From NCBI GenBank assembly GCA_934613415.1, contig CAKTSY010000001.1, positions 300,001 to 332,000 on the forward strand: 32,000 nucleotides of DNA. The letters run 5' to 3'. Position numbers and translations under genes: made by a program. The notes beneath the pieces are model-generated. The model was not told the origin of the DNA. It searched no databases and worked only from the letters and a program-made list of their open reading frames with translations. Of this stretch, positions 1,969-18,744 are shown one piece after another. Position 1 is the first letter of the stretch, and every line of letters begins with the position of its first letter. This DNA is from an uncultured Opitutales bacterium (GTDB taxonomy: Bacteria; Verrucomicrobiota; Verrucomicrobiia; Opitutales; Intestinicryptomonadaceae).

Positions 1969-2354
1969 TTTCGCCAATCTTCTTTAAGCACAAACACGTT
2001 TTTTATTTTTAACTCGTTTTTCAACTTATGGGCAACGCTTGCTCCGTCATTTGCAGAGCTTGTTTTGCAATATACCAAAACGGCATATTCTGGTTGCCAC
2101 ACGTCCAAGAAATCGCCCAGATGATTTTCAAAATCGTCGGCAGGCAAATTTACAGCATTTTCTATATGCCCAATTTTGTACTCGCTTTTTGGACGCGCAT
2201 CTACAACAAGCAGCTTATTTGGCAGCAAATCCGCTTGGGCAAACGTAATTTCGTGCGGGTTAAATATTATGCGATTACAATTTAGCATAAAATTTGCAAA
2301 GGCCAAAACCAAGCTTAAAAACAGAATAACAAATATGCCTTTAATTGTTTTCAT
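1947..2354 (-). CDS. membrane-anchored rhodanese-domain sulfurtransferase
   Basis: The stretch LLVVDARPKSEYKIGHIENAVNLP...VLVYCKTSSANDG matches the rhodanese fold with an active-site Cys loop. The N-terminal TM is MKTIKGIFVILFLSLVLAF. The track start at 2399 is TTG; ATG at 2354 overlaps the upstream stop by 14 nt. Confidence 0.8.
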   Translation of the reverse strand: MKTIKGIFVILFLSLVLAFANFMLNCNRIIFNPHEITFAQADLLPNKLLVVDARPKSEYKIGHIENAVNLPADDFENHLGDFLDVWQPEYAVLVYCKTSSANDGASVAHKLKNELKIKNVFVLKEDWRKWKEQKR

Positions 2355-3666
2355 ATTCTCCCAAGAAAAGGCTTGTCCAATTAGGGATATAGTCTCCAAC
2401 GCCGTTAAGCATTATAACCGAAATGCCGGGATTTTTTTCGGAAATTTCCGTCCATTTTTTGCGGTTGCGCCAGTCCGAAAACATACCCAAATAAACGCTT
2501 GTGTTTTCAAGCTTTAAATTGTCGCATTCGTCGCTAAGCGGCACATTTAATAGAACTTTTTTGTCTGCGTTTATCGAGGAAATTTCGCCGGCATCTTTTG
2601 CCTGACATATTAGCGCAGTTTTAAATTTTGCGTTTGGCAAGGTGTCGCAAACAAGCACTGTAATGTTTTTTTGTTTGCAAAATTCGGCAAGCTCGCGGCC
2701 AAATCTAAGCCCCAAAGATTTTTCGTCGGGCGCAAAAAGAAGGTATTCTGCCGTATCTGAACCGCCGCAAAGAACGTTGCCGTTTTCGTAAAGCTTAAGT
2801 TTATATTGCCTAGGCAATGCAATAGACACAGCACAAATTGCCGAAAATGCAGCCAAAGTTAGCACAACAACCGACAAATAAAACCTGCCGCACAACAAAC
2901 GCCTTCGGTTGCATACAATAGCCGCAACAAGCACCGCCAAAGGCATTATCCACAAAACCCAATAGTTTGCAACATTGCTAAACGACGCACACAACCCAAA
3001 ACACAGCCATGTTGCAAACGCGCTAACGCAAAATAGATTGCCCGAAAGCGTAAAACTTATGCATAAGGCAAAAACCCAAAAGGCAACATATGCAATTTTC
3101 AAATATAAATTATGCCCGCACATAAATTCTAAATGCGAATTTATAAGCGATAGATACTGCGCGCTGTCGTCTGGGTCTTGATACCAATTTGCATACACTT
3201 GCGATGGAGATTTTTCGCCCGTGCCGTTCGGAATATCGGTAATCATTTTCAAGCCCGATAAATATATCTGGGCCCTGCAGTTTGCCGACGAACTTTGCAA
3301 AGTGGCCATATTAGTCATTCTTAGCGAAAGCGTGCTGTTTAAATACATAACGCCAGCAACTAAAATAGCCGCCGCAATAAAAAATGCGCGCCATTTATTG
3401 CGCGTAAACCCGCGCAACAAAACAAAGGCGACGGCAGAAATTGCAAGCCCAACAAATGCCCCGCGCGACTGCGTTTGCAGCAAAAAATTAAACAAAACAA
3501 GCGATGCAATTACGCAAATATAAAAGCCTGCTTTTTTGAAAACTGCGGCAAACACCCAAACGGCAAAAATGGCACAAGCAATAAACGCCGCAGTGCGGTT
3601 TGCGCTGGAAATACCGTAGCCAAACCAGTCTAGCCTTTCGGGAATAATTTCAAGCAAAAGATTCAT
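2341..3666 (-). CDS. O-antigen ligase (Wzy_C)-like polytopic membrane protein with extra C-terminal soluble domain
   Basis: Many TM helices and the motif LQTQSRGAFVGLAISAVAF, resembling the Wzy_C/O-antigen ligase signature. The C-terminal ~150 aa are non-hydrophobic. ATG at 3666 forms an ATGA overlap with the upstream stop (3663-3665); the track start at 3687 is TTG. Confidence 0.6.
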   Translation of the reverse strand: MNLLLEIIPERLDWFGYGISSANRTAAFIACAIFAVWVFAAVFKKAGFYICVIASLVLFNFLLQTQSRGAFVGLAISAVAFVLLRGFTRNKWRAFFIAAAILVAGVMYLNSTLSLRMTNMATLQSSSANCRAQIYLSGLKMITDIPNGTGEKSPSQVYANWYQDPDDSAQYLSLINSHLEFMCGHNLYLKIAYVAFWVFALCISFTLSGNLFCVSAFATWLCFGLCASFSNVANYWVLWIMPLAVLVAAIVCNRRRLLCGRFYLSVVVLTLAAFSAICAVSIALPRQYKLKLYENGNVLCGGSDTAEYLLFAPDEKSLGLRFGRELAEFCKQKNITVLVCDTLPNAKFKTALICQAKDAGEISSINADKKVLLNVPLSDECDNLKLENTSVYLGMFSDWRNRKKWTEISEKNPGISVIMLNGVGDYIPNWTSLFLGEYENN

Positions 3667-4733
3667 TTTTCTATTATTGTCCCCCAAGCCTTTGCAAGCG
3701 GCTTTGTAGGCAACGAAACCATATACTTTCTGTCGGCAACGTTACCCACTGCCGACTCTACCGGATACGCCACCTGGTTTAAATAGTCTCCAACATATAT
3801 TGGGTGGCGCAAAAGGTAAAATTTATCTATTGGGGGCGCAACCCAATTTGGATTGCTGGCATCTGGAACAAAATTTATCAAATACTTAAAAAACTCTAAA
3901 GAAAGGTTGTCTATTTGTGCGTTTGTTGCGTGCCCCAAATTTTCGCCCGCCTTAAAAATTACGGCGCAACCTAAATCTATCATTCTTTCGTAAAACCTTT
4001 TTGCCGCCGAATAGCCATATTCAAGTTCGCCCGTTGTTACTAGCCAGACAATGCCCTTTGCGTTTGCGTTGGGGGTATCGTAGCTAGAATTTACATGAAT
4101 GTGTATGCCAGAAAAATATTGCGGTTTGCGCATGGCCATTCTGTGTGCAATTTGCGCGCCGCCGCTAAAGCCGTATAGCATAACTGCGTTTTTAGGCAGC
4201 ACAAATTTGTTCATAACGCGCTTAAAACCCGTTTCCCATTCCGACAACCTGTCGTTAAAAATAAATTCGTAGTCTTTAACCTGCCTGGTGCTCATTTCGT
4301 CGGTACTTACCGAAGGCGAATATCCGCCAAAGTTAGACCATGTTAGCATAGCCAAATTGTTTTCGTCGGCAAATTTTATAAGGTGCTTATAATAGCTTTC
4401 CGAATAAGTAAGGTTGTTCCTTAAATCGTTAGGCAATTTGTTCCAAGTGCATATTGCAATAACACCCCTAACGCATGGGATATTCGTTTTTTTTGCGTTT
4501 TCAAACTTTTCTTTAGTCCAAGATTGCGGCATACGCACAACATAGGTTATTTCCTCCAGCTTGTTGCGCTTTTTCCAGTTCTTTTTGGCTACCTGCGTTT
4601 TTGCATCGGTACGGTAAACGCTCATAAAAATTCTGTCGCCTTCAACTACATATTGCTCGGGCGGCGGCATCTGAGTGAATGCAACAAGCGGCAACCCAAG
4701 CAAAAATATGCGCAATAAAAGCCTAAAAATCAT
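3663..4733 (-). CDS. secreted alpha/beta hydrolase (esterase/depolymerase-like)
   Basis: Nucleophile elbow LYGFSGGAQIAH, a late His (ENLGHATN), and signal peptide MIFRLLLRIFLLGLPLVAFTQ. ATG at 4733 forms an ATGA overlap with the upstream stop; the track start at 4754 is TTG. Confidence 0.75.
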   Translation of the reverse strand: MIFRLLLRIFLLGLPLVAFTQMPPPEQYVVEGDRIFMSVYRTDAKTQVAKKNWKKRNKLEEITYVVRMPQSWTKEKFENAKKTNIPCVRGVIAICTWNKLPNDLRNNLTYSESYYKHLIKFADENNLAMLTWSNFGGYSPSVSTDEMSTRQVKDYEFIFNDRLSEWETGFKRVMNKFVLPKNAVMLYGFSGGAQIAHRMAMRKPQYFSGIHIHVNSSYDTPNANAKGIVWLVTTGELEYGYSAAKRFYERMIDLGCAVIFKAGENLGHATNAQIDNLSLEFFKYLINFVPDASNPNWVAPPIDKFYLLRHPIYVGDYLNQVAYPVESAVGNVADRKYMVSLPTKPLAKAWGTIIEK

Positions 4734-5635
4734 TGTTCTTGAATCCTTCTCCAAGTTTCAATCAGCTCTTTGCTTCTAAACGGGCAATACATTTCCGATT
4801 TGTCGTTAAAAACAAATCCGTCGTCGTCGGAACTTGTAATGTCGCAATAAATATCTTTTTGCGGTTTTTTGTCGCCACGCCAAACGGCAAGTTCTTCGTC
4901 GAAAAACTCGCGTATAAATTTTTCGAATTTCGCGCTGCGGTTGTGCCCTGTATTTGAAATGCTAACCCATATCCACGGGCGTTTGTCTCGGCGCCCCTTG
5001 TAGTAGTAGGCAAAGGTTGGCTGCCAACGCATTCCGTCTTTTTCGCCACAGGCAACAATGCCGCGCGCTTTTGTAAGTTTTGCGCCGCTTTTTGGATAAT
5101 CCCAAAACTGGGCCGAATATGCGCACCACGCCAAAACTCTATCGGGGCACCAGTCTATAAACCTGCTTACAAAATGCGCCCCGCCCGAAAACCCGTATAA
5201 TACCAAGGGCAAATCTTTGCCGTATACGCGTTTAACTTCGTCTAGCAAAGCCTGCCCCGAACCGTATTGCGGCCAGTAGTAGCCCGTTTTTGTTTCGTAT
5301 AAATCTTCGGTGGCAGACCAATAGTTTAGGGCTATTATCCCCAAATTGTTTTTCTTTGCAAAATCAAGCCACGGGGTTTCTTTTGTAAAAAATTCGCCGT
5401 TTGTGTTCATACCCGGGGCAAGCACCAAAACGGCCTTTGGGTTTTCGCAAACAACATTGCAAAACAAAAACTTGCTGTTAGCCCTAAGGGATATAGAAGC
5501 AAAACACAAAATTATTGGCAGGTAAAACTTTGGTACAAAACAAAAAATTGCCTGTTTTTTGCGGTTTAAACAAAGGCAAAAACGCCAAGGCATGCCCAAA
5601 AGATTTTTTATTTTGCTTATGTTACCAAACCTCAT
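4730..5635 (-). CDS. alpha/beta hydrolase, paralogue of 3663-4733
   Basis: Same GFSGG elbow (LYGFSGGAHFVS) and late His (SNTGHNRS). The start is uncertain. The track start at 5671 is the TTG of a TTGACA -35-like hexamer. ATG at 5635 (MRFGN) and ATG at 5593 (MPWRF) are both possible, and neither has an SD. Confidence 0.7.
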   Translation of the reverse strand: MRFGNISKIKNLLGMPWRFCLCLNRKKQAIFCFVPKFYLPIILCFASISLRANSKFLFCNVVCENPKAVLVLAPGMNTNGEFFTKETPWLDFAKKNNLGIIALNYWSATEDLYETKTGYYWPQYGSGQALLDEVKRVYGKDLPLVLYGFSGGAHFVSRFIDWCPDRVLAWCAYSAQFWDYPKSGAKLTKARGIVACGEKDGMRWQPTFAYYYKGRRDKRPWIWVSISNTGHNRSAKFEKFIREFFDEELAVWRGDKKPQKDIYCDITSSDDDGFVFNDKSEMYCPFRSKELIETWRRIQEQ

Positions 5636-5665
5636 ACGCAAAACAAAACATACATTTGCAAAACT

Positions 5666-5690
5666 TGTCAAGCGTTTTTTGTGATATTTT
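5666..5690 (-). promoter_or_regulatory. putative promoter -35 (TTGACA) plus shared upstream 15-mer AAAATATCACAAAAA
   Basis: Minus strand reads AAAATATCACAAAAAACGCTTGACA. The same 15-mer sits just upstream of the -35 at 9176-9190 and 13374-13388. No convincing -10 was found at 17 +/-1 spacing. Confidence 0.3.
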
Positions 5691-5828: not shown

Positions 5829-6836
5829 TTACTTTAATGCTTTTTCAAGCTTTTTAGCTAGTTGCGACATTTGATAAACGCTATTTCTTTTTAGGTCGAA
5901 AACCGTTGCAGATTCGGGAATTTCCAGCATCATATTTTTAGAAATCTTAGCCTTGTCGGTTATGATTTTATTTATTTTTATAATTTCGCTTGCATATAGT
6001 TTGGCATTGTATGTATCGCCATTTGCGCTTTTGTTTATGGCGTATAAATTAACAACTATCTTGTGCGGAATGGATATATTGGCTCCTTCAATTTGCTTAT
6101 ATTCGCTATATAAAATTTCGCTTATAACGGGCAATTCAATTTCGCGTTTGTCTTTGCCAATACTAAGCAAACTTGTTGTAGCGCGAACAGGATAAATTTT
6201 TCCAAAAATTTCCTTTAAATAAAGCCTATATAAATCGTAAACATCAAAAATTTTATCTGGGCTTTTATTCTTATATTTGCGTATGGTCAAAACCGCCGAA
6301 CCGTTTTTTGCCGTATAAGATATGTCGGAATTTCCCGCATTCAAAATTAAATTCTTAATATCTACAAAGTTTACGCCCATTTTTTGCGTATCGCTAAATG
6401 CCGATAAGTAGCTAAAAAGAAATGGGTCTCTACCATTGTTTAAATCAAAGTCTGCAAATTCAACCAAGTCGCGATTTGGTATATAACGCAATTTTTCGCT
6501 TGGCGAAATGTAGTATAGATATTGCGAATCCGATGCGTCTTTTGCATTTTTAGGATACAGCCTATTTATGGAATACAAAAAACAGCCCTTGCCGTCTGCA
6601 AACACTTTACATTTTGCATTAGGCGTATACAAAACCTGCTTTTTGGCGTCTATATCGGCACCTTCTACAACCCTTTCGTATTCAATGCAAATGGGCATAT
6701 TCGCAAGCCCAAACTTATTTTGCAGCAATTCAAAAACTGCCTCATTTGCAAACAAATTGCACAGCGGTAAAGCACAAAACAAGATATAGCCAAGAATAAG
6801 TTTCTTACCTAAAAGCCAAAATTTAAACCGTTTCAT
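5829..6836 (-). CDS. secreted hypothetical protein, LolA/LppX-like paralogue (P1)
   Basis: 335-aa ORF with N-terminal signal-like segment LILGYILFCALPLCNLFA. By-eye collinear similarity to 13520-14521, for example ISEILYSEYKQIEGANISIPHKIVVNLYAI versus VAEYIYSDFAKIKNGVKIPKKIVYNMNVIA. Confidence 0.65.
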   Translation of the reverse strand: MKRFKFWLLGKKLILGYILFCALPLCNLFANEAVFELLQNKFGLANMPICIEYERVVEGADIDAKKQVLYTPNAKCKVFADGKGCFLYSINRLYPKNAKDASDSQYLYYISPSEKLRYIPNRDLVEFADFDLNNGRDPFLFSYLSAFSDTQKMGVNFVDIKNLILNAGNSDISYTAKNGSAVLTIRKYKNKSPDKIFDVYDLYRLYLKEIFGKIYPVRATTSLLSIGKDKREIELPVISEILYSEYKQIEGANISIPHKIVVNLYAINKSANGDTYNAKLYASEIIKINKIITDKAKISKNMMLEIPESATVFDLKRNSVYQMSQLAKKLEKALK

Positions 6837-8015: not shown

Positions 8016-9116
8016 TTATTTAAAGAAAATTTCAGAATCTACACCCATAATTTTTGCATTCTCGATAGCCGCAATCTGAATGGGATTAAATTTTACAAAC
8101 TTATGTTCGATGTTTTTGCCGTCTTTATTAAAAACAATGCTAAGCGAACCGCTATTTTCTACAATATCTGCTATCTTCTGCAAAGTTAGCGTCTTAAAAT
8201 CAACGCCGTTAATTTTCAAAATTTCGGCAGTTAACACACCCTTTTTTGCAAAATCTTTATATAAATATTTAGACCATTCTTTGTTTAATTCTATGCGGTT
8301 TAATAAAATTTCTATTCCGTAATAGCCCTTGTTTTTTTCTGTTTTTAATTTGTAGGTTATGGGGTCAAAAAATTTATAGTCTGCAAGGGATATATGCTTT
8401 TTGTTAAACGAGTTTTCCACTTTAAACTTAAAATTTAAATTCGGAACATCAATTTGCAGATATTCAAGCATATCGTTTTTTGCCAAACTTGCCTTAATAG
8501 AAAACTTGCCGTCGCATATAACATCTATCTTTTTATTGGAAAGCAATTGCTTTATGTTGGCTTTTACCGCCTCTTTTAGTTCTGCTACAACTGCGGTGTT
8601 TAGTCTTGTACGGTAGTCTTTTGTCAACTCGTCAAGTATAGACGAAATATTTTCTACACTTGGGCACAAATAACGCTGCACATTCGGGTAAGTTCTATTT
8701 TCTGTAAACAGTCTTGAATATTCGTCGCTTGTGTATCTGTCGTTTTCCGAATTTTTACGAAATACGCCGGCTTTGGAATATATTTTGCGCTCATTATATT
8801 TTTTTGGCATAGCGGCGGCATTGGCTTCCATAACTTCCGTATTCTCAAGAACGAAAGCTTCGCTAGCATTTACGTTATAGGTTATGGAGCTTTCCGCATA
8901 CCAGTCGTTTGAAAAAGATGCTTTTGTTTCTACAAACTCTATTTTTGCATCGTTCAAAATTTCGAAAAACTGCATAGATTTAACATCGTTTTTTAAAGAC
9001 AAATGCTCGGCAAGCCCTTGCATTGAAAAGTCGCCTGCATACATCGCCCCTCCGCCAATTGCAAAGACAAAAAATCCAACTTTTAGAACAAACTTTTTTG
9101 CACAAACAAATTTCAT
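8016..9116 (-). CDS. secreted hypothetical protein (P3): LolA-like region plus C-terminal PDZ-like domain
   Basis: 366-aa ORF with a hydrophobic N-terminus (FVLKVGFFVFAIGGGAMYA). The C-terminal segment GVLTAEILKINGVDFKTLTLQKIADIVENSGSLSIVFNKDGKNIEHKF has the PDZ pattern (xILxINGxxV...LxVxRxG-like). Confidence 0.6.
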   Translation of the reverse strand: MKFVCAKKFVLKVGFFVFAIGGGAMYAGDFSMQGLAEHLSLKNDVKSMQFFEILNDAKIEFVETKASFSNDWYAESSITYNVNASEAFVLENTEVMEANAAAMPKKYNERKIYSKAGVFRKNSENDRYTSDEYSRLFTENRTYPNVQRYLCPSVENISSILDELTKDYRTRLNTAVVAELKEAVKANIKQLLSNKKIDVICDGKFSIKASLAKNDMLEYLQIDVPNLNFKFKVENSFNKKHISLADYKFFDPITYKLKTEKNKGYYGIEILLNRIELNKEWSKYLYKDFAKKGVLTAEILKINGVDFKTLTLQKIADIVENSGSLSIVFNKDGKNIEHKFVKFNPIQIAAIENAKIMGVDSEIFFK

Positions 9117-9143
9117 AACACTCTTTCTTTTGTATCCATTGGT

Positions 9144-9190
9144 AGAATAAGTTTTAAGGCAAATACAGTCAAGTATTTTTGTGATATTTT
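9144..9190 (-). promoter_or_regulatory. sigma70-type promoter TTGACT-N17-TATTCT with upstream 15-mer, drives 8016-9116/6986-8008
   Basis: Minus strand reads AAAATATCACAAAAATACTTGACTGTATTTGCCTTAAAACTTATTCTACC. The -35 is at 9167-9172 and the -10 at 9144-9149. Near-identical to the cassette at 13343-13389. Confidence 0.6.
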
Positions 9191-9239
9191 CATGTCAGCG
9201 CTTTTGGTAAATCGGTATAAGTTATTTAGCAAAGCAACT

Positions 9240-11587: not shown

Positions 11588-12256
11588 CTAGTTTTCTTCA
11601 CAATATGTTGCAATTTTGTTCTTATTTTTATCATAAACTGTACGAAATATCCCCGCAACTGACGCTAATTTAGTTTTAACCACATACTTTCCATCGGCAA
11701 AAATAATTTTTTGTGTCATCTCGCCATTGCTTTCGTCTTTTTTTAAAATCTCTATTTTGCCGTCGGGCAAATGCTTCATTTCGTATATCGTTTCGCCGTT
11801 TAGCACTGTTTTTACTTTTTCAAACTTTTCGTTATAAAAAAACTCCCTTACATTCCCCTCCGAATCGCTTTCTCTTATTATGTCGCCGTTGGCGTTAAAT
11901 AGGCGTGTAAGTTGCGTTTTCCATTCCTTATCGTTTGCAGACATCTTTTCGATTTTCCTTACTTTCATAGACGCTTTGCCCGGGGCTCCTATATACATTG
12001 TCCGTGTCTTTTCGCCTGTAGATGGGTTTTGCGTTATTTTTATCGCCTGTCTTACGCTATAGTCCCATATCTCGGCGTAGCGGTTTTCTGGCTTTTTGTA
12101 GGCTATAGTTACTTCCATTGTGCTGTTGTTGCGCCTGCGGTCTGCCTTAAATTCGCTATTATTATATTCGGGGCTGTCTTTGTCGTACAATGGGTTTCTT
12201 ACTGCATATTCGCCGCCGCTGTCGGATATTATCATACCGCTGGTTGCGTCCCCCAC
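11588..12256 (-). CDS. YD/RHS-repeat-like hypothetical protein (P7), possibly the C-terminal part of a frameshifted gene
   Basis: GTG start with no signal peptide. It has YD-repeat-flavoured segments (NANGDIIRESDSEGNVREFFYNEKF, HLPDGKIEILKKDESNGEM). It overlaps the 3' end of 12232-13158 by 25 nt across a G5 run. Confidence 0.55.
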   Translation of the reverse strand: MGDATSGMIISDSGGEYAVRNPLYDKDSPEYNNSEFKADRRRNNSTMEVTIAYKKPENRYAEIWDYSVRQAIKITQNPSTGEKTRTMYIGAPGKASMKVRKIEKMSANDKEWKTQLTRLFNANGDIIRESDSEGNVREFFYNEKFEKVKTVLNGETIYEMKHLPDGKIEILKKDESNGEMTQKIIFADGKYVVKTKLASVAGIFRTVYDKNKNKIATYCEEN

Positions 12257-13158
12257 TCTATGTAGCCACTAAGCCCACTGTTTTTATTAACTTGTTCAAC
12301 CCTATTGGCAAATACGTTTAGCTGCTTGCTTTCCTCTTTTGTAAGGCACTTGCGGCTTTTCTTTTCGTTGCAAGCTTTATAGGTATATTCAAGGCATTCG
12401 CCGTCTGTAAACTTTATAGACGATACCAATTTGCTGAGCCCAGCTACCCCGTTTTGCCCTATGGTTTTAAATTCTTTATAAGATATTTGAACCGACTTTT
12501 TGTCTTTTATAAATCTTATTTCAGACAACAACCCCTCGCTATTATACGCAAATTCTACCGCTATTGCTCGTTTTGTTTGGTTGTATATTACCGACGGAAA
12601 GCCATTGTTTTTATACGACACTCTAAAAACGTCGCCTCCCTCGCCTACGCAAAATTCCGCCAAACAACTGTTTTTAAATATAAACTTGTTTTTCGGATCT
12701 CGCACATTCGAGATATCTATTTGCTCGTTCTTGGCTATGTTCAGTTTCCAAGAGGCGTTTGTGTTTAATATATAGCTTTCCTTATAACCTCTTTCTGTTG
12801 TGGGGAGTTTATTAAATGTATATGTTCCGTGGTTGGGGCTTTTCCATAAATATCTGCTGTTCGACAGTTTTACCGCCTTTGTCTCTATAAAAGCTATGCT
12901 CCAATATTGCCCCATATATTTGGGCTCTAAATATGGCGCCGTGCAAAACTTAAAAAACATATCTGCTCTGCGACCGTTGCCCAGGTCTAGTTCGTAAAAA
13001 ACCTTGTCCATTCGGGCAAAGCCGTTGCTGTCGGCATTGCCTATGGGCGACTGCCGCGGCGAACGCACAAACTGCGCATTTGCCTGCAATGCAAACAACG
13101 CGCAAAATGCAAATGCAAGTTTTGCCGCAAAAACAAACACTTTGCGCAGCGTTCCCAT
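12232..13158 (-). CDS. secreted YD/RHS-repeat-like hypothetical protein (P8)
   Basis: ATG at 13158 gives MGTLRKVFVFAAKLAFAFCALFALQANA, which is signal-peptide-like; the track start at 13269 is TTG. The segment FRVSYKNNGFPSVIYNQTKRAIAVEFAYNSEGLLSEIRF resembles YD repeats. The start is 1 nt after the P9 stop. Confidence 0.6.
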   Translation of the reverse strand: MGTLRKVFVFAAKLAFAFCALFALQANAQFVRSPRQSPIGNADSNGFARMDKVFYELDLGNGRRADMFFKFCTAPYLEPKYMGQYWSIAFIETKAVKLSNSRYLWKSPNHGTYTFNKLPTTERGYKESYILNTNASWKLNIAKNEQIDISNVRDPKNKFIFKNSCLAEFCVGEGGDVFRVSYKNNGFPSVIYNQTKRAIAVEFAYNSEGLLSEIRFIKDKKSVQISYKEFKTIGQNGVAGLSKLVSSIKFTDGECLEYTYKACNEKKSRKCLTKEESKQLNVFANRVEQVNKNSGLSGYIEWGTQPAV

Positions 13159-13159
13159 A

Positions 13160-13315
13160 TTATTCGCCAAGCTGTTGCGGCATATTGTCTTCGCCAGGGT
13201 TGCCGCTGCAGCCTTTGTCTCCGGGTTCGCAACCTGCACAATCATCTGCCAACGCATTAAAAGACGCAAGCGTTATCATAAGCGCAAATATTATTTTTAT
13301 AATCTTAGTTTTCAT
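13160..13315 (-). CDS. 51-aa secreted pre-peptide with acidic Cys-containing mature region (P9)
   Basis: Sequence is MKTKIIKIIFALMITLASFNALA|DDCAGCEPGDKGCSGNPGEDNMPQQLGE. It has the best SD in the window (GAGGTG, 5 nt before ATG 13315) and lies directly downstream of a TTGACT-N17-TATTCT promoter. The upstream in-frame ATG at 13360 lies between the -35 and -10. The stop is TAA, then 1 nt, then the ATG of P8. Confidence 0.55.
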   Translation of the reverse strand: MKTKIIKIIFALMITLASFNALADDCAGCEPGDKGCSGNPGEDNMPQQLGE

Positions 13316-13342
13316 AACAACACCTCTTTTGTAGTTGTAGGT

Positions 13343-13389
13343 AGAATAAAAATCCCGCATAACACAGTCAAGATTTTTGTGATATTTTT
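13343..13389 (-). promoter_or_regulatory. sigma70-type promoter TTGACT-N17-TATTCT with upstream 15-mer, drives 13315->9240 unit
   Basis: Minus strand reads AAAAATATCACAAAAATCTTGACTGTGTTATGCGGGATTTTTATTCTACC. The -35 is at 13366-13371 and the -10 at 13343-13348. Confidence 0.6.
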
Positions 13390-13432
13390 ATATTTGCATA
13401 CTTTTAACAAATATAAATAGCGTTTTATATAC

Positions 13433-13476
13433 ATATAATAAAAATGTCTTTTGTCCCTATAGACAAAAGACATTTT
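13433..13476 (-). terminator. intrinsic terminator downstream of 13520-14521
   Basis: Perfect 15-bp inverted repeat aaaatgtcttttgtc / gacaaaagacatttt (13441-13455 / 13462-13476) with a 6-nt loop. On the minus strand it is followed by TTTTTATTAT. Confidence 0.75.
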
Positions 13477-13519: not shown

Positions 13520-14521
13520 TTAATAGAATTTTACAATATCGCCAACGTCGAATGCAGTTGAATTTATTTCATCTATAAGCCTTGTATCTTTCGGTAAAGA
13601 TACGCATGATTTTTCAGCAATTTTTTGTTTGTCGGCAGAAATTTCTTTCACGACAACCGTTTGCCAAAATACGCGCTTTTGCCTAACCGACAAAATTTTG
13701 CCCTGCTCGTCCATCTTCGGGGCAATAACATTCATATTATAGACTATCTTTTTGGGAATTTTAACGCCGTTTTTTATTTTAGCAAAATCCGAATATATGT
13801 ATTCAGCAACTACGGGACTTTCTATTTCGTTGCCAAAAAAGTCTGTCAATAAAAAGCGGTGCTGAATGCTCGCTAAAGTTTTATCGGTTTTTGTGCCTAT
13901 AAAATTAAAAACGTACATATCCATTATCTTTATGCGCTTGTCTACAGCGTCTCTTTTGTCGACATAAAACGCAGCCTTAAAGCCATTTTCGGTTGCCGAA
14001 AAAACCAGCTTGTTGCCGTCTAGCCTAGACATTTGCAGTAGTTGGGCAAATGTTTTTGTAGGATATGTAAAATCGTCGTCTGGCACTTTAGCCAAAAAAT
14101 CCATATAAGACTGACGGCCTATATAAGGAGAGACTTCTTTTTTCACAACCGCAAGCTTTCTAGACGGAACGTATGTAAGCCAAATTTTGTCTTTTGTAAT
14201 CGCGCGAATATAATTTGCATTTACTTCGGTTGGCTTTTTATATGACACATAAAAAACCTGCCTGCCCGATTCGTCTACAACATATTCGCCGTAAAAACTT
14301 GGCGTTGAAAACTCTACTTCTTTTGGATTTACGCCTTTTGCAACAACCCCGTCAGATTCGCATTCGAACGAAATATATACGGGGATTTTCAGCGAATTAA
14401 ACTCGTTAAAAAGGCTAAAGGATTTGTCGACAATATTTTCGGCAAAAAGCCCAACCGAAAACGCACAAAAAAGCGCAACGGCAAAAACTCTTTTAAATAT
14501 TTTACAATTACTTGATTTCAT
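13520..14521 (-). CDS. secreted hypothetical protein, LolA/LppX-like paralogue (P10)
   Basis: 333-aa ORF with signal peptide FKRVFAVALFCAFSVGLFA. An SD-like AAGGTG lies 5 nt upstream of the ATG. Collinear similarity to P1. Confidence 0.65.
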   Translation of the reverse strand: MKSSNCKIFKRVFAVALFCAFSVGLFAENIVDKSFSLFNEFNSLKIPVYISFECESDGVVAKGVNPKEVEFSTPSFYGEYVVDESGRQVFYVSYKKPTEVNANYIRAITKDKIWLTYVPSRKLAVVKKEVSPYIGRQSYMDFLAKVPDDDFTYPTKTFAQLLQMSRLDGNKLVFSATENGFKAAFYVDKRDAVDKRIKIMDMYVFNFIGTKTDKTLASIQHRFLLTDFFGNEIESPVVAEYIYSDFAKIKNGVKIPKKIVYNMNVIAPKMDEQGKILSVRQKRVFWQTVVVKEISADKQKIAEKSCVSLPKDTRLIDEINSTAFDVGDIVKFY

Positions 14522-18672: not shown

Positions 18673-18744
18673 CGTTCCCGCTGGGAGTCGAACCCAGATT
18701 TGCGGTTCCGGAGACCGCCGTTTTATCCATTAAACTATGGGAAC
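18673..18744 (-). tRNA. tRNA-Arg (anticodon CCG)
   Basis: Folded by hand into a cloverleaf.
- Acceptor stem is GTTCCC/GGGAAC, with an A7.C66 mismatch.
- D stem is GTTT/AAAC, with a GG-containing loop.
- Anticodon stem is GCGGT/ACCGC, with loop CTCCGGA.
- T stem is CTGGG/CCCAG, with loop TTCGACT.
- Discriminator is G, and CCA is not encoded. Confidence 0.85.

Follow-up and report, generated by a model that had tools for sequence, protein, structure and literature searches.

What does a reading frame for 51 amino acids do directly before a gene for an RHS-like protein, and is it a gene at all? The question is raised by a short open reading frame (mini-ORF) on the minus strand (13315..13160) of a 32,000-nucleotide stretch of contig CAKTSY010000001.1, positions 300,001 to 332,000, from an uncultured Opitutales bacterium (assembly GCA_934613415.1); this whole stretch is referred to below as the window. 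A preliminary description of the window, made from its letters and translated reading frames, had proposed that the frame encodes an exported, cysteine-containing acidic mini-protein and had offered several roles for it. Comparison with related loci indicates that the mini-ORF is a real, conserved gene and not a chance ORF. Its product belongs to the constant part of a two-gene module and is most likely a trans-acting periplasmic partner of the RHS-like protein encoded next to it.

The start codon of the mini-ORF occupies 13315-13313 and the TAA stop 13162-13160, giving a 51-residue pre-peptide. The predicted signal-peptide part (MKTKIIKIIFALMITLASFNALA; 13247..13315, minus) has two lysines in its n-region, a hydrophobic core and an A-x-A cleavage site, with A-L-A as the small-residue pattern at -3/-1. 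It is followed by a 28-residue acidic mature peptide (DDCAGCEPGDKGCSGNPGEDNMPQQLGE; 13163..13246, minus) with a net charge of -6 and the C-terminal motif MPQQLGE. Cysteines stand at positions 26, 29 and 36 (CxxC-x6-C). Two of the window residues are invariant in the family described below: Cys29, encoded at 13229-13231 (minus), and Met45, encoded at 13181-13183 (minus). The 51-residue frame, the cysteine pattern and the acidic charge reported in the preliminary description all hold, on the minus strand.

Exact and near-exact copies of the mini-ORF were found in human-gut metagenome assemblies, Hadza samples included. A scan of one genome per species gave 7 loci, all in Opitutales (Verrucomicrobiota), and a metagenome scan added 42. 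The carriers comprised at least 7 Opitutales species, among them Candidatus Merdousia and Puniceicoccaceae bacterium Marseille-Q1082, and many gut metagenomes. An intact homologous mini-ORF was present immediately upstream of the homologue of the partner, a protein of ~510 residues, in 42 of the 47 assessable gut Opitutales loci. At one further locus the mini-ORF was cut by the contig end, and four loci were defective (L020, in which a second copy is frameshifted, L040, L056 and L059). The mini-ORF was present even where partner identity had fallen to 32-39% (L051-L054), and each paralogous partner had its own peptide copy (L019, L020). In L019 (3718-5920) two pairs of peptide and RHS-like gene lie head to head, each with a divergent peptide; L020 carries two pairs in tandem, and it is the second of its peptide ORFs that is frameshifted.

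The peptide was then searched for by profile. A word-indexed search returned 50 clusters, and an exhaustive search of 1.84 billion representatives returned only 27, all of this family and 40-124 residues long. In these 27 clusters the peptide was never found away from an RHS-like gene or in any other context. No fusion of peptide and partner (a "Rosetta stone" protein) was seen among the exhaustive matches; P0140 is a chimera produced by a deletion. The peptide matched no Pfam or NCBIfam model above threshold, and no relatives of the partner were found in viral contigs. The peptide family is unannotated and lineage-restricted.

Selection was assessed by summing synonymous and nonsynonymous differences along minimum-spanning trees of alleles. 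In the subtype to which the window peptide belongs, the mature part had accumulated 20 synonymous and 2 nonsynonymous differences (ratio of nonsynonymous to synonymous change, pN/pS, 0.03); in a second, Pro-rich subtype the counts were 34.5 and 18.5 (pN/pS 0.15). These values are lower than those of the signal peptide (0.25 in the window's subtype and 0.33 in the Pro-rich one). The glycine codon of the C-terminal motif varies, with GGA, GGC, GGT and GGG all in use, and conservation is therefore at the protein level. Because the frame is conserved across 42 of 47 loci and is under purifying selection, the mini-ORF is placed beyond chance. The check proposed in the preliminary description, a frame preserved upstream of YD-like genes and purifying selection on it, was passed clearly (42/47; pN/pS 0.03-0.15).

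Signal-peptide features were common to all 35 distinct members. Each had at least one lysine or arginine, a 12-residue window with a mean Kyte-Doolittle value of 2.3-3.4, and alanine, glycine or serine at -1; small residues at -3/-1 and n-, h- and c-regions were found in all 35 variants, as for substrates of the Sec pathway and signal peptidase I. The exported-type mini-protein gene proposed earlier is genuine. Two other kinds of signal were rejected on inspection: PEP-CTERM, as a C-terminal transmembrane segment and basic tail are lacking, and a lipoprotein signal, as there is no lipobox.

The mature part is usually 26-33 residues long (40-45 in one clade) and is composed of ~30% Asp+Glu and ~32% Pro+Gly; its net charge is about -8 (range -4 to -11). 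In subtype 1, the window's type, the pattern is CxxC-x6-C ... [N/S/Y]M. Subtype 2 is Pro-rich, for example C-NPTPPEPPDPDPGE-CM, with cysteines at -22 and -7 from the C-terminus. The window peptide and others of its subtype have CxxC, which the Pro-rich subtype lacks. The number of cysteines in the mature part ranges from 1 to 6, and just two residues, a Cys and a Met, are invariant across the family. In every case the Met lies 6 residues before the final one. Of 69 distinct sequences, 59 have the invariant Cys at a distance of 22 from the last residue, 8 at 21 and 2 at 23; this spacing is kept although the intervening sequence differs completely between subtypes, and is kept also in a clade with 16 extra residues between signal peptide and invariant Cys. 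Where a second Cys is present it stands at -15 or -7. The C-terminal motif M-[PSDG]-x-x-[LI]-x-[ED]-stop, in which hydrophobic positions alternate, was found in all 69 intact variants. An AlphaFold2 (AF2) model of the peptide contained a helix at residues 2-23 (the signal peptide) only, with the mature part as coil at a predicted local distance difference test score (pLDDT) of 52-59, and the mature peptide is predicted to be disordered by itself.

The mini-ORF and the partner gene adjoin closely. The stop codon lies 1 nt before the partner ATG at 13158 (TAA-T-A(TG); 13158..13162, minus) and the partner gene has no Shine-Dalgarno sequence of its own in the window; translational coupling is therefore implied, as had been suggested. 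Across the family the junctions are TAATG or ATGA overlaps (up to 4 nt) or gaps of 1-18 nt, and ...GGAGAA TAA TG is common. RNAalifold predicted 0 pairs over 16 diverse junctions, that is, no conserved RNA structure. The mini-ORF itself has the Shine-Dalgarno sequence GAGGTG (13326..13321, minus) with a 5-nt spacer to its ATG, and the prominence given to this site earlier was borne out: it is the best match among the 16 gene starts checked in the block of genes around it.

Further upstream lies a predicted sigma-70-like promoter, TTGACT-N17-TATTCT (13371..13343, minus). It had been called the strongest-looking in the window. The site is present as described, but a scan alone gives no support to that ranking: its match is 9/12, unremarkable by itself, and the region holds 21 promoter-like sites against 27.8 expected from shuffles, so that there is no enrichment. 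A TTGAC(A/T) -35 element is, however, kept at the same distance, ~55-65 nt upstream of the peptide ATG, together with a purine-rich Shine-Dalgarno sequence, in most related loci. A terminator-like hairpin with a 16-bp stem and T-rich tail (13476..13441, minus), 3' of the upstream 333-residue gene, stands between that gene and the peptide promoter. An Rfam scan found no RNA element near the mini-ORF; its sole match was a tRNA (18673-18744).

The co-directional array that runs from 13315 to ~1546 had been described as the longest operon of the block. It contains three larger gaps, one of them with a near-copy of the promoter and 5' untranslated region (5'UTR) of the mini-ORF, and because of these it is probably several transcription units with internal promoters, not one operon. 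The module before the peptide (AAAATATCACAAAAAT-CTTGACTGT...TTATTCTACC...ACAAAAG; 13316-13400, minus) is duplicated at 9117-9200 (minus) as AAAATATCACAAAAAT..TTGACTGT..TTATTCTACC..ACAAAAG, before the gene at 8016..9116.

Nor is the leader position behind a promoter, as seen in the window, general. In L011 and L012 the mini-ORF overlaps the stop of an upstream 330-residue gene, and in L008 the mature peptide is joined to the signal peptide of the upstream gene. The feature that is kept is any signal peptide plus the mature peptide, directly before the RHS-like gene. In L011 (7012-8156) and L012 (2-1110) the unrelated 330-residue protein carries the 5'UTR and signal peptide of the mini-ORF, and in L008 (8001-8168) the fusion falls exactly at the cleavage site and the upstream 333-residue gene is otherwise deleted. 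In the lineage of the window, a single signal peptide is found in front of three mature peptides that differ strongly from one another (the window, L043 and L048/L009). Judged by these sequences, signal-peptide and promoter modules are shuffled (window 13247-13315 and 14441-14521; L008, L011, L012).

The partner is encoded in the window in two pieces. The N-terminal 308 residues (12232..13158, minus) have their own signal peptide and form a constant, basic module; the C-terminal part (11588..12235, minus), which begins at an ATGA overlap start (MIISDSGGEY...), includes the variable C-terminus. The gene is split by a G5 run with a GG insertion (12250..12254, minus; genes affected, 12232..13158 and 11588..12256), which reads GAGTGGGGGAC where intact relatives have GAGTGGGAC; L011-L013 encode the partner as one 507-residue protein. 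The allele with the insertion is taken to be real because it is common to at least four independent assemblies. The split gene may be a pseudogene or contain a phase-variable tract, and the strain may have an inactive or phase-variable module. A split-gene idea of another kind, in which the peptide would be the N-terminus of the partner, was rejected, as the partner starts with a signal peptide of its own and the two are read in different frames.

The partner family comprises 94 clusters of proteins of about 500-540 residues. Its AF2 model (pLDDT 83, predicted template modelling score 0.73) consists entirely of beta-hairpins. Foldseek matched it to Rhs cores, teneurins and TcB-TcC at E values of 4e-11 to 1e-5 (4e-11 to 1e-8 for the Rhs cores), with TMq values of only 0.16-0.38. 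Since the matches are strong in E value and low in TMq, the partner is predicted to be a sheet of RHS type, roughly a third as large as a cocoon. Sequence searches gave less: Pfam RHS_repeat was found in P0040 (above cut-off) and P0045 (below cut-off) only and not in the window protein, and a search of the PDB with the partner profile gave one marginal Rhs match (E 0.039). There was no NCBIfam match to the Rhs-associated core, the DPxG[LWIVM] motif of the DPxGL aspartyl protease was present in 0 of 44 family members, and neither the tips nor the downstream window proteins matched any Pfam, NCBIfam or PADLOC family, with no toxin domain or immunity protein recognised. The secreted YD-like gene of the preliminary description is accordingly of RHS/YD type by predicted fold and, in the window, is not one frame.

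The first ~420 residues of the partner and the last ~100, the tip, have different histories, that is, they have recombined. L023 and L038 are 95-100% identical over most of the N-terminal part and 17-23% identical at the C-terminus; L015 and L023 are 60-90% identical in the N-terminal half and 100% thereafter. The type of tip, itself predicted as beta-hairpins, matches the family of the downstream gene cassette. The tips (window 11588-12000; L015, L023, L035, L037, L038, L039) co-vary with downstream secreted-protein cassettes of the families F12-F4-F7, F13-F5, F18-F10-F11 and F19-F20-F21. Peptide identity tracks the N-terminal part of the partner (rho 0.60) and not the tip (rho 0.17). The N-terminal 400 residues have a net charge of +6 to +19 and the C-terminus about +1, and two cysteines, C173 and C233, are mostly conserved.

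We favour, at a little under an even chance, the reading that the mini-ORF encodes a disordered protein of the periplasm that serves the RHS-like protein as a subunit or cap, by analogy with Bd0108 and Bd0109 of Bdellovibrio bacteriovorus. A partner role is preferred because of the strict pairing, the stop/start coupling, the co-inheritance with the N-terminal part and the Bd0108/Bd0109 precedent. Among the roles offered in the preliminary description, the same points favour that of a chaperone- or partner-like protein; an immunity-like role does not fit, as the peptide does not follow the variable C-terminus. Under the subunit or cap reading, ribosomes would load at the strong Shine-Dalgarno sequence of the peptide and start again on the partner gene, so that the two products are made in roughly equal amounts. 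After export of both by Sec, signal peptidase I would remove their signal peptides. Once in the periplasm, the peptide could use its invariant Cys (-22) to pair with the second Cys (-15 or -7) or, together with the invariant Met, to bind metal. The C-terminal M-x-[I]-x-[L]-x-[E/D] would attach to the open RHS-like sheet, either as an extra strand or as an anchor, and the fixed-length acidic spacer would cover the basic surface of the partner. The peptide could in this way cap, stabilise or regulate the RHS-like protein, on the model of Bd0109, a truncated RHS protein, and the disordered CxxC protein Bd0108 that binds it.

Several observations weigh against a subunit or cap. Co-inheritance with the N-terminal module is also expected from simple physical linkage. 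Charge complementarity is weak evidence because most proteins of the locus are basic and the charge of the partner is only moderately above the locus background; there was also no co-variation between peptide and partner charge (rho -0.14, p 0.43). A fixed intermolecular disulfide was rejected, as no parity was seen between the number of peptide cysteines and the two conserved partner cysteines. L056 and L040 have a decayed peptide ORF beside an apparently intact partner, and in the window the reverse is seen, with the partner frameshifted and the peptide intact. Part of the C-terminal conservation may lie at the nucleotide level and reflect the ribosome binding site of the partner gene: synonymous change in the last 8 codons was 0.07-0.11 compared with 0.16-0.30, on small counts.

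The last of these points bears also on the main rival, that the mini-ORF is a cis-acting leader which loads ribosomes for the SD-less partner gene, its nascent chain maybe tuning the coupling by pausing or arrest in the manner of CruR/DUF2946, SecM, MifM and VemP. We consider this unlikely. A leader would account for a mini-ORF that in most loci comes first in its transcription unit, after a conserved -35 element, for the best Shine-Dalgarno sequence being on the peptide and none on the partner in the window, for a peptide stop and partner start that overlap or nearly touch, and for the concentration of the most conserved residues in the last 7 codons, where synonymous change is lower. The ruler-like spacing from Cys to C-terminus likewise recalls the fixed CXXC-RAPP spacing of CruR (PMC9426467). 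M-P-I-E-L-G-E is, however, unlike the known arrest motifs (RAPP, RAGP), and none of these stands at the C-terminus of the 69 intact variants. The ribosomal exit tunnel holds ~30-40 residues, and the invariant Cys, 22 residues from the C-terminus, would still be inside it at termination. The CXXC of CruR is 45 residues from the C-terminus and exposed (PMC9426467). The distance from signal peptide to C-terminus is unconserved (27 vs 43 residues), and between the two genes there is neither a conserved hairpin nor a Rho spacer. Purifying selection acts over the whole mature part, the signal-peptidase site and Cys pairs are conserved, and the downstream gene is not a localisation factor.

Three further readings are each less likely. 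The peptide could be a payload, enclosed or carried by the RHS-like sheet and delivered or released by it; RHS/YD folds are known containers (the Foldseek matches include the shells of Rhs, TcB-TcC and teneurins), the peptide is small, predicted to be disordered and made in stoichiometric co-synthesis, and encapsulation of Bd0108 in Bd0109 has been put forward (PMC4267844). This is improbable, as a closed shell is doubtful for a partner of only ~470 mature residues with TMq of 0.16-0.38 against full Rhs cocoons, a conserved acidic 27-mer has no obvious effector activity, and the variable, cassette-linked element is the C-terminus of the partner itself. An independent periplasmic metal-binding (for example copper) or redox-active mini-protein, with a regulatory or incidental link to the RHS-like gene, would suit the single invariant Cys and Met, the CxxC of the window type and the many carboxylates, and the CxxC of the disordered Bd0108 has been discussed as a possible redox motif. 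The metal- or disulfide-based role suggested earlier accordingly stays among the candidates. We nevertheless hold an independent protein of this kind to be just as improbable as a payload, because the large Pro-rich subtype lacks CxxC and in some members there is just one Cys, the conserved neighbours include no metal-homeostasis genes, and the 27 clusters of the exhaustive search place the peptide solely beside the RHS-like gene. Least probable of all, with very little in prospect for it, is a secreted signal, a bacteriocin-like peptide or the precursor of a ribosomally synthesised and post-translationally modified peptide. The product is small, exported-type, Cys-containing and operon-leading, and some downstream cassettes encode a secreted C39-like peptidase. 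Strongly acidic peptides are, however, atypical among antimicrobials; the signal is of Sec type and not a leader or double-glycine leader, and the C39-like gene is found in only 7 loci, independent of peptide subtype. The signalling and modified-peptide roles of the preliminary description are not upheld, as no modifying enzyme, ABC exporter or other transporter, sensor kinase or other receptor is conserved with the peptide in the window and the conserved neighbourhood.

The peptide and partner stand at the head of a longer set of genes. Usually the pair is followed by genes for 1-4 variable secreted proteins, then for a DUF1573 protein, a pair of alpha/beta-hydrolase-like proteins and lastly a Wzy_C-like protein. 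In the window the alpha/beta-hydrolase-like proteins, with a GFSGGAQ motif, are encoded at 4730..5635 and 3663..4733, and the Wzy_C/O-antigen-ligase-like membrane protein at 2341..3666. The DUF1573 Ig-like protein, a conserved distal gene in many loci, is absent from the window. Distal synteny (2341-5671 in the window) is kept across Opitutales whose partners are only 32-50% identical. Pfam, NCBIfam and PADLOC scans of the peptide, partner and block proteins returned only DUF1573, C39, Wzy_C and weak RHS_repeat matches in relatives.

Between ~5800 and 15500 the window has a low-GC block (33-41%, flanks ~44%). Nearly all proteins encoded in it carry a signal peptide and match nothing in Pfam, NCBIfam or PADLOC. 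Its opposite ends are occupied by a pair of paralogues from a single family (13520..14521 and 5829..6836), and the tRNA gene (minus, Rfam 59.9 bits) is ~3 kb past its upstream edge. The C39-like protein is a secreted, stand-alone Peptidase_C39-like protein of ~175 residues (Pfam E 9e-7), encoded in L031 (3888-4409) and in 6 other loci, all of one cassette type. A link between the peptide and this peptidase was rejected on its limited and subtype-independent occurrence.

Micro-proteins of ~50 codons are routinely missed or mis-started, and gene callers gave 51-, 66- and 74-residue versions of this one. The family that the peptide defines is strictly paired with its partner and follows rules of unusual clarity. 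If the peptide binds the RHS-like protein, dozens of natural pairs would become available for working out how a peptide recognises an RHS sheet, and the pair would mark a lineage-specific, highly recombining surface or secreted system of the gut Opitutales. These are an under-studied, partly cultured group of the human microbiota, seen in Hadza and other gut metagenomes, and such a recombining system may matter for competition or host interaction. A bolder version, which we regard as possible though doubtful, sees in the pair a two-component module not recognised before. The ~27-residue, disordered, acidic "key" peptide, its invariant Cys set at a ruler-like 22 residues from the C-terminus, would be a subunit that its RHS-like protein cannot do without, or a ligand loaded onto it, and the short, polymorphic, Sec-exported RHS-like proteins of human-gut Verrucomicrobiota would form a new class. 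The module would also be the first counterpart of Bd0108-Bd0109 outside predators. If true, it would turn that pair into a general principle, in which a small disordered protein gates an open RHS sheet.

Three known kinds of system were compared with the locus. CruR (DUF2946, Bp2923), SecM, MifM, VemP and the RAPP family resemble the mini-ORF in being a first ORF with an export signal and a Cys motif at a fixed distance from a C-terminal motif, and translational control of the next gene is plausible here too; CruR has an export signal and heads its operon (PMC9426467). These peptides are 95-170 residues long, with RAPP/RAGP-type motifs and an intergenic hairpin or Rho site (PMC9426467, PMC7897499, PMC10987492), whereas the Opitutales ORF has 50 residues, the motif MPIELGE, a stop/start overlap and an RHS-like protein as its target.

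Polymorphic toxin loci of the Rhs/YD type, in which accessory genes (EagR chaperones, PAAR, VgrG) lie upstream and immunity genes downstream, share the beta-hairpin fold, the constant N-terminus, a C-terminal tip that recombines with downstream genes and a small accessory gene immediately upstream, and a Sec-dependent route is among the export modes listed for RHS toxins (PMC3482391; bioRxiv 10.1101/2024.02.26.582050). Unlike Rhs toxins, the partner is about one third the size of an Rhs core and has no Rhs-associated core, DPxGL protease or recognisable toxin domain, and the loci have no type VI secretion system, PAAR, VgrG or Eag genes. The accessory product also differs, being a 27-residue exported-type acidic peptide in Opitutales and a cytoplasmic chaperone (EagR) in Rhs loci.

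The closest likeness is to the hit locus of B. bacteriovorus. The Sec signal peptide of Bd0108 is 23 residues long, with cleavage (ASA-DE) just ahead of acidic residues, and the mature chain is disordered and contains a CxxC disulfide; its gene is the first of the two and is co-transcribed with that of Bd0109, to which Bd0108 binds in vitro, and Bd0109 is a Sec-exported RHS/YD-repeat protein without Rhs protease and toxin (PMC3818213, PMC4267844). Small signal-peptide neighbours stand beside Bd0109 homologues in related predators too (PMC3818213, PMC4267844). The Opitutales pair has the same layout, with a small, predicted disordered, Sec-type peptide encoded directly before a truncated RHS protein that has no protease or toxin. 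The differences are considerable. Bd0108 is three times longer, at 78 mature residues, and its termini, as deduced from published primers, are ADENANRP at the start and AGTGRQ at the end, so that the M-x5-[ED] C-terminus is lacking. Its conserved part, which is also the binding part, is N-terminal, whereas that of the Opitutales peptide is C-terminal. Homology to Bd0108 was not detected by the peptide profile in the exhaustive search, in which all 27 clusters had the family's own motif. In Bdellovibrio the two genes are part of a Tad/type IVb pilus operon, and no pilus families were found among the scanned window genes or the conserved neighbours; a C-terminus that recombines, matched by the cassettes downstream, is a feature of the Opitutales partner and is not described for Bd0109. 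The design of a disordered small protein with a truncated RHS protein has previously been a single, poorly understood example. If the peptide described here binds its RHS-like neighbour, a small disordered exported protein combined with a truncated RHS protein would be a recurrent design and not an oddity of Bdellovibrio.

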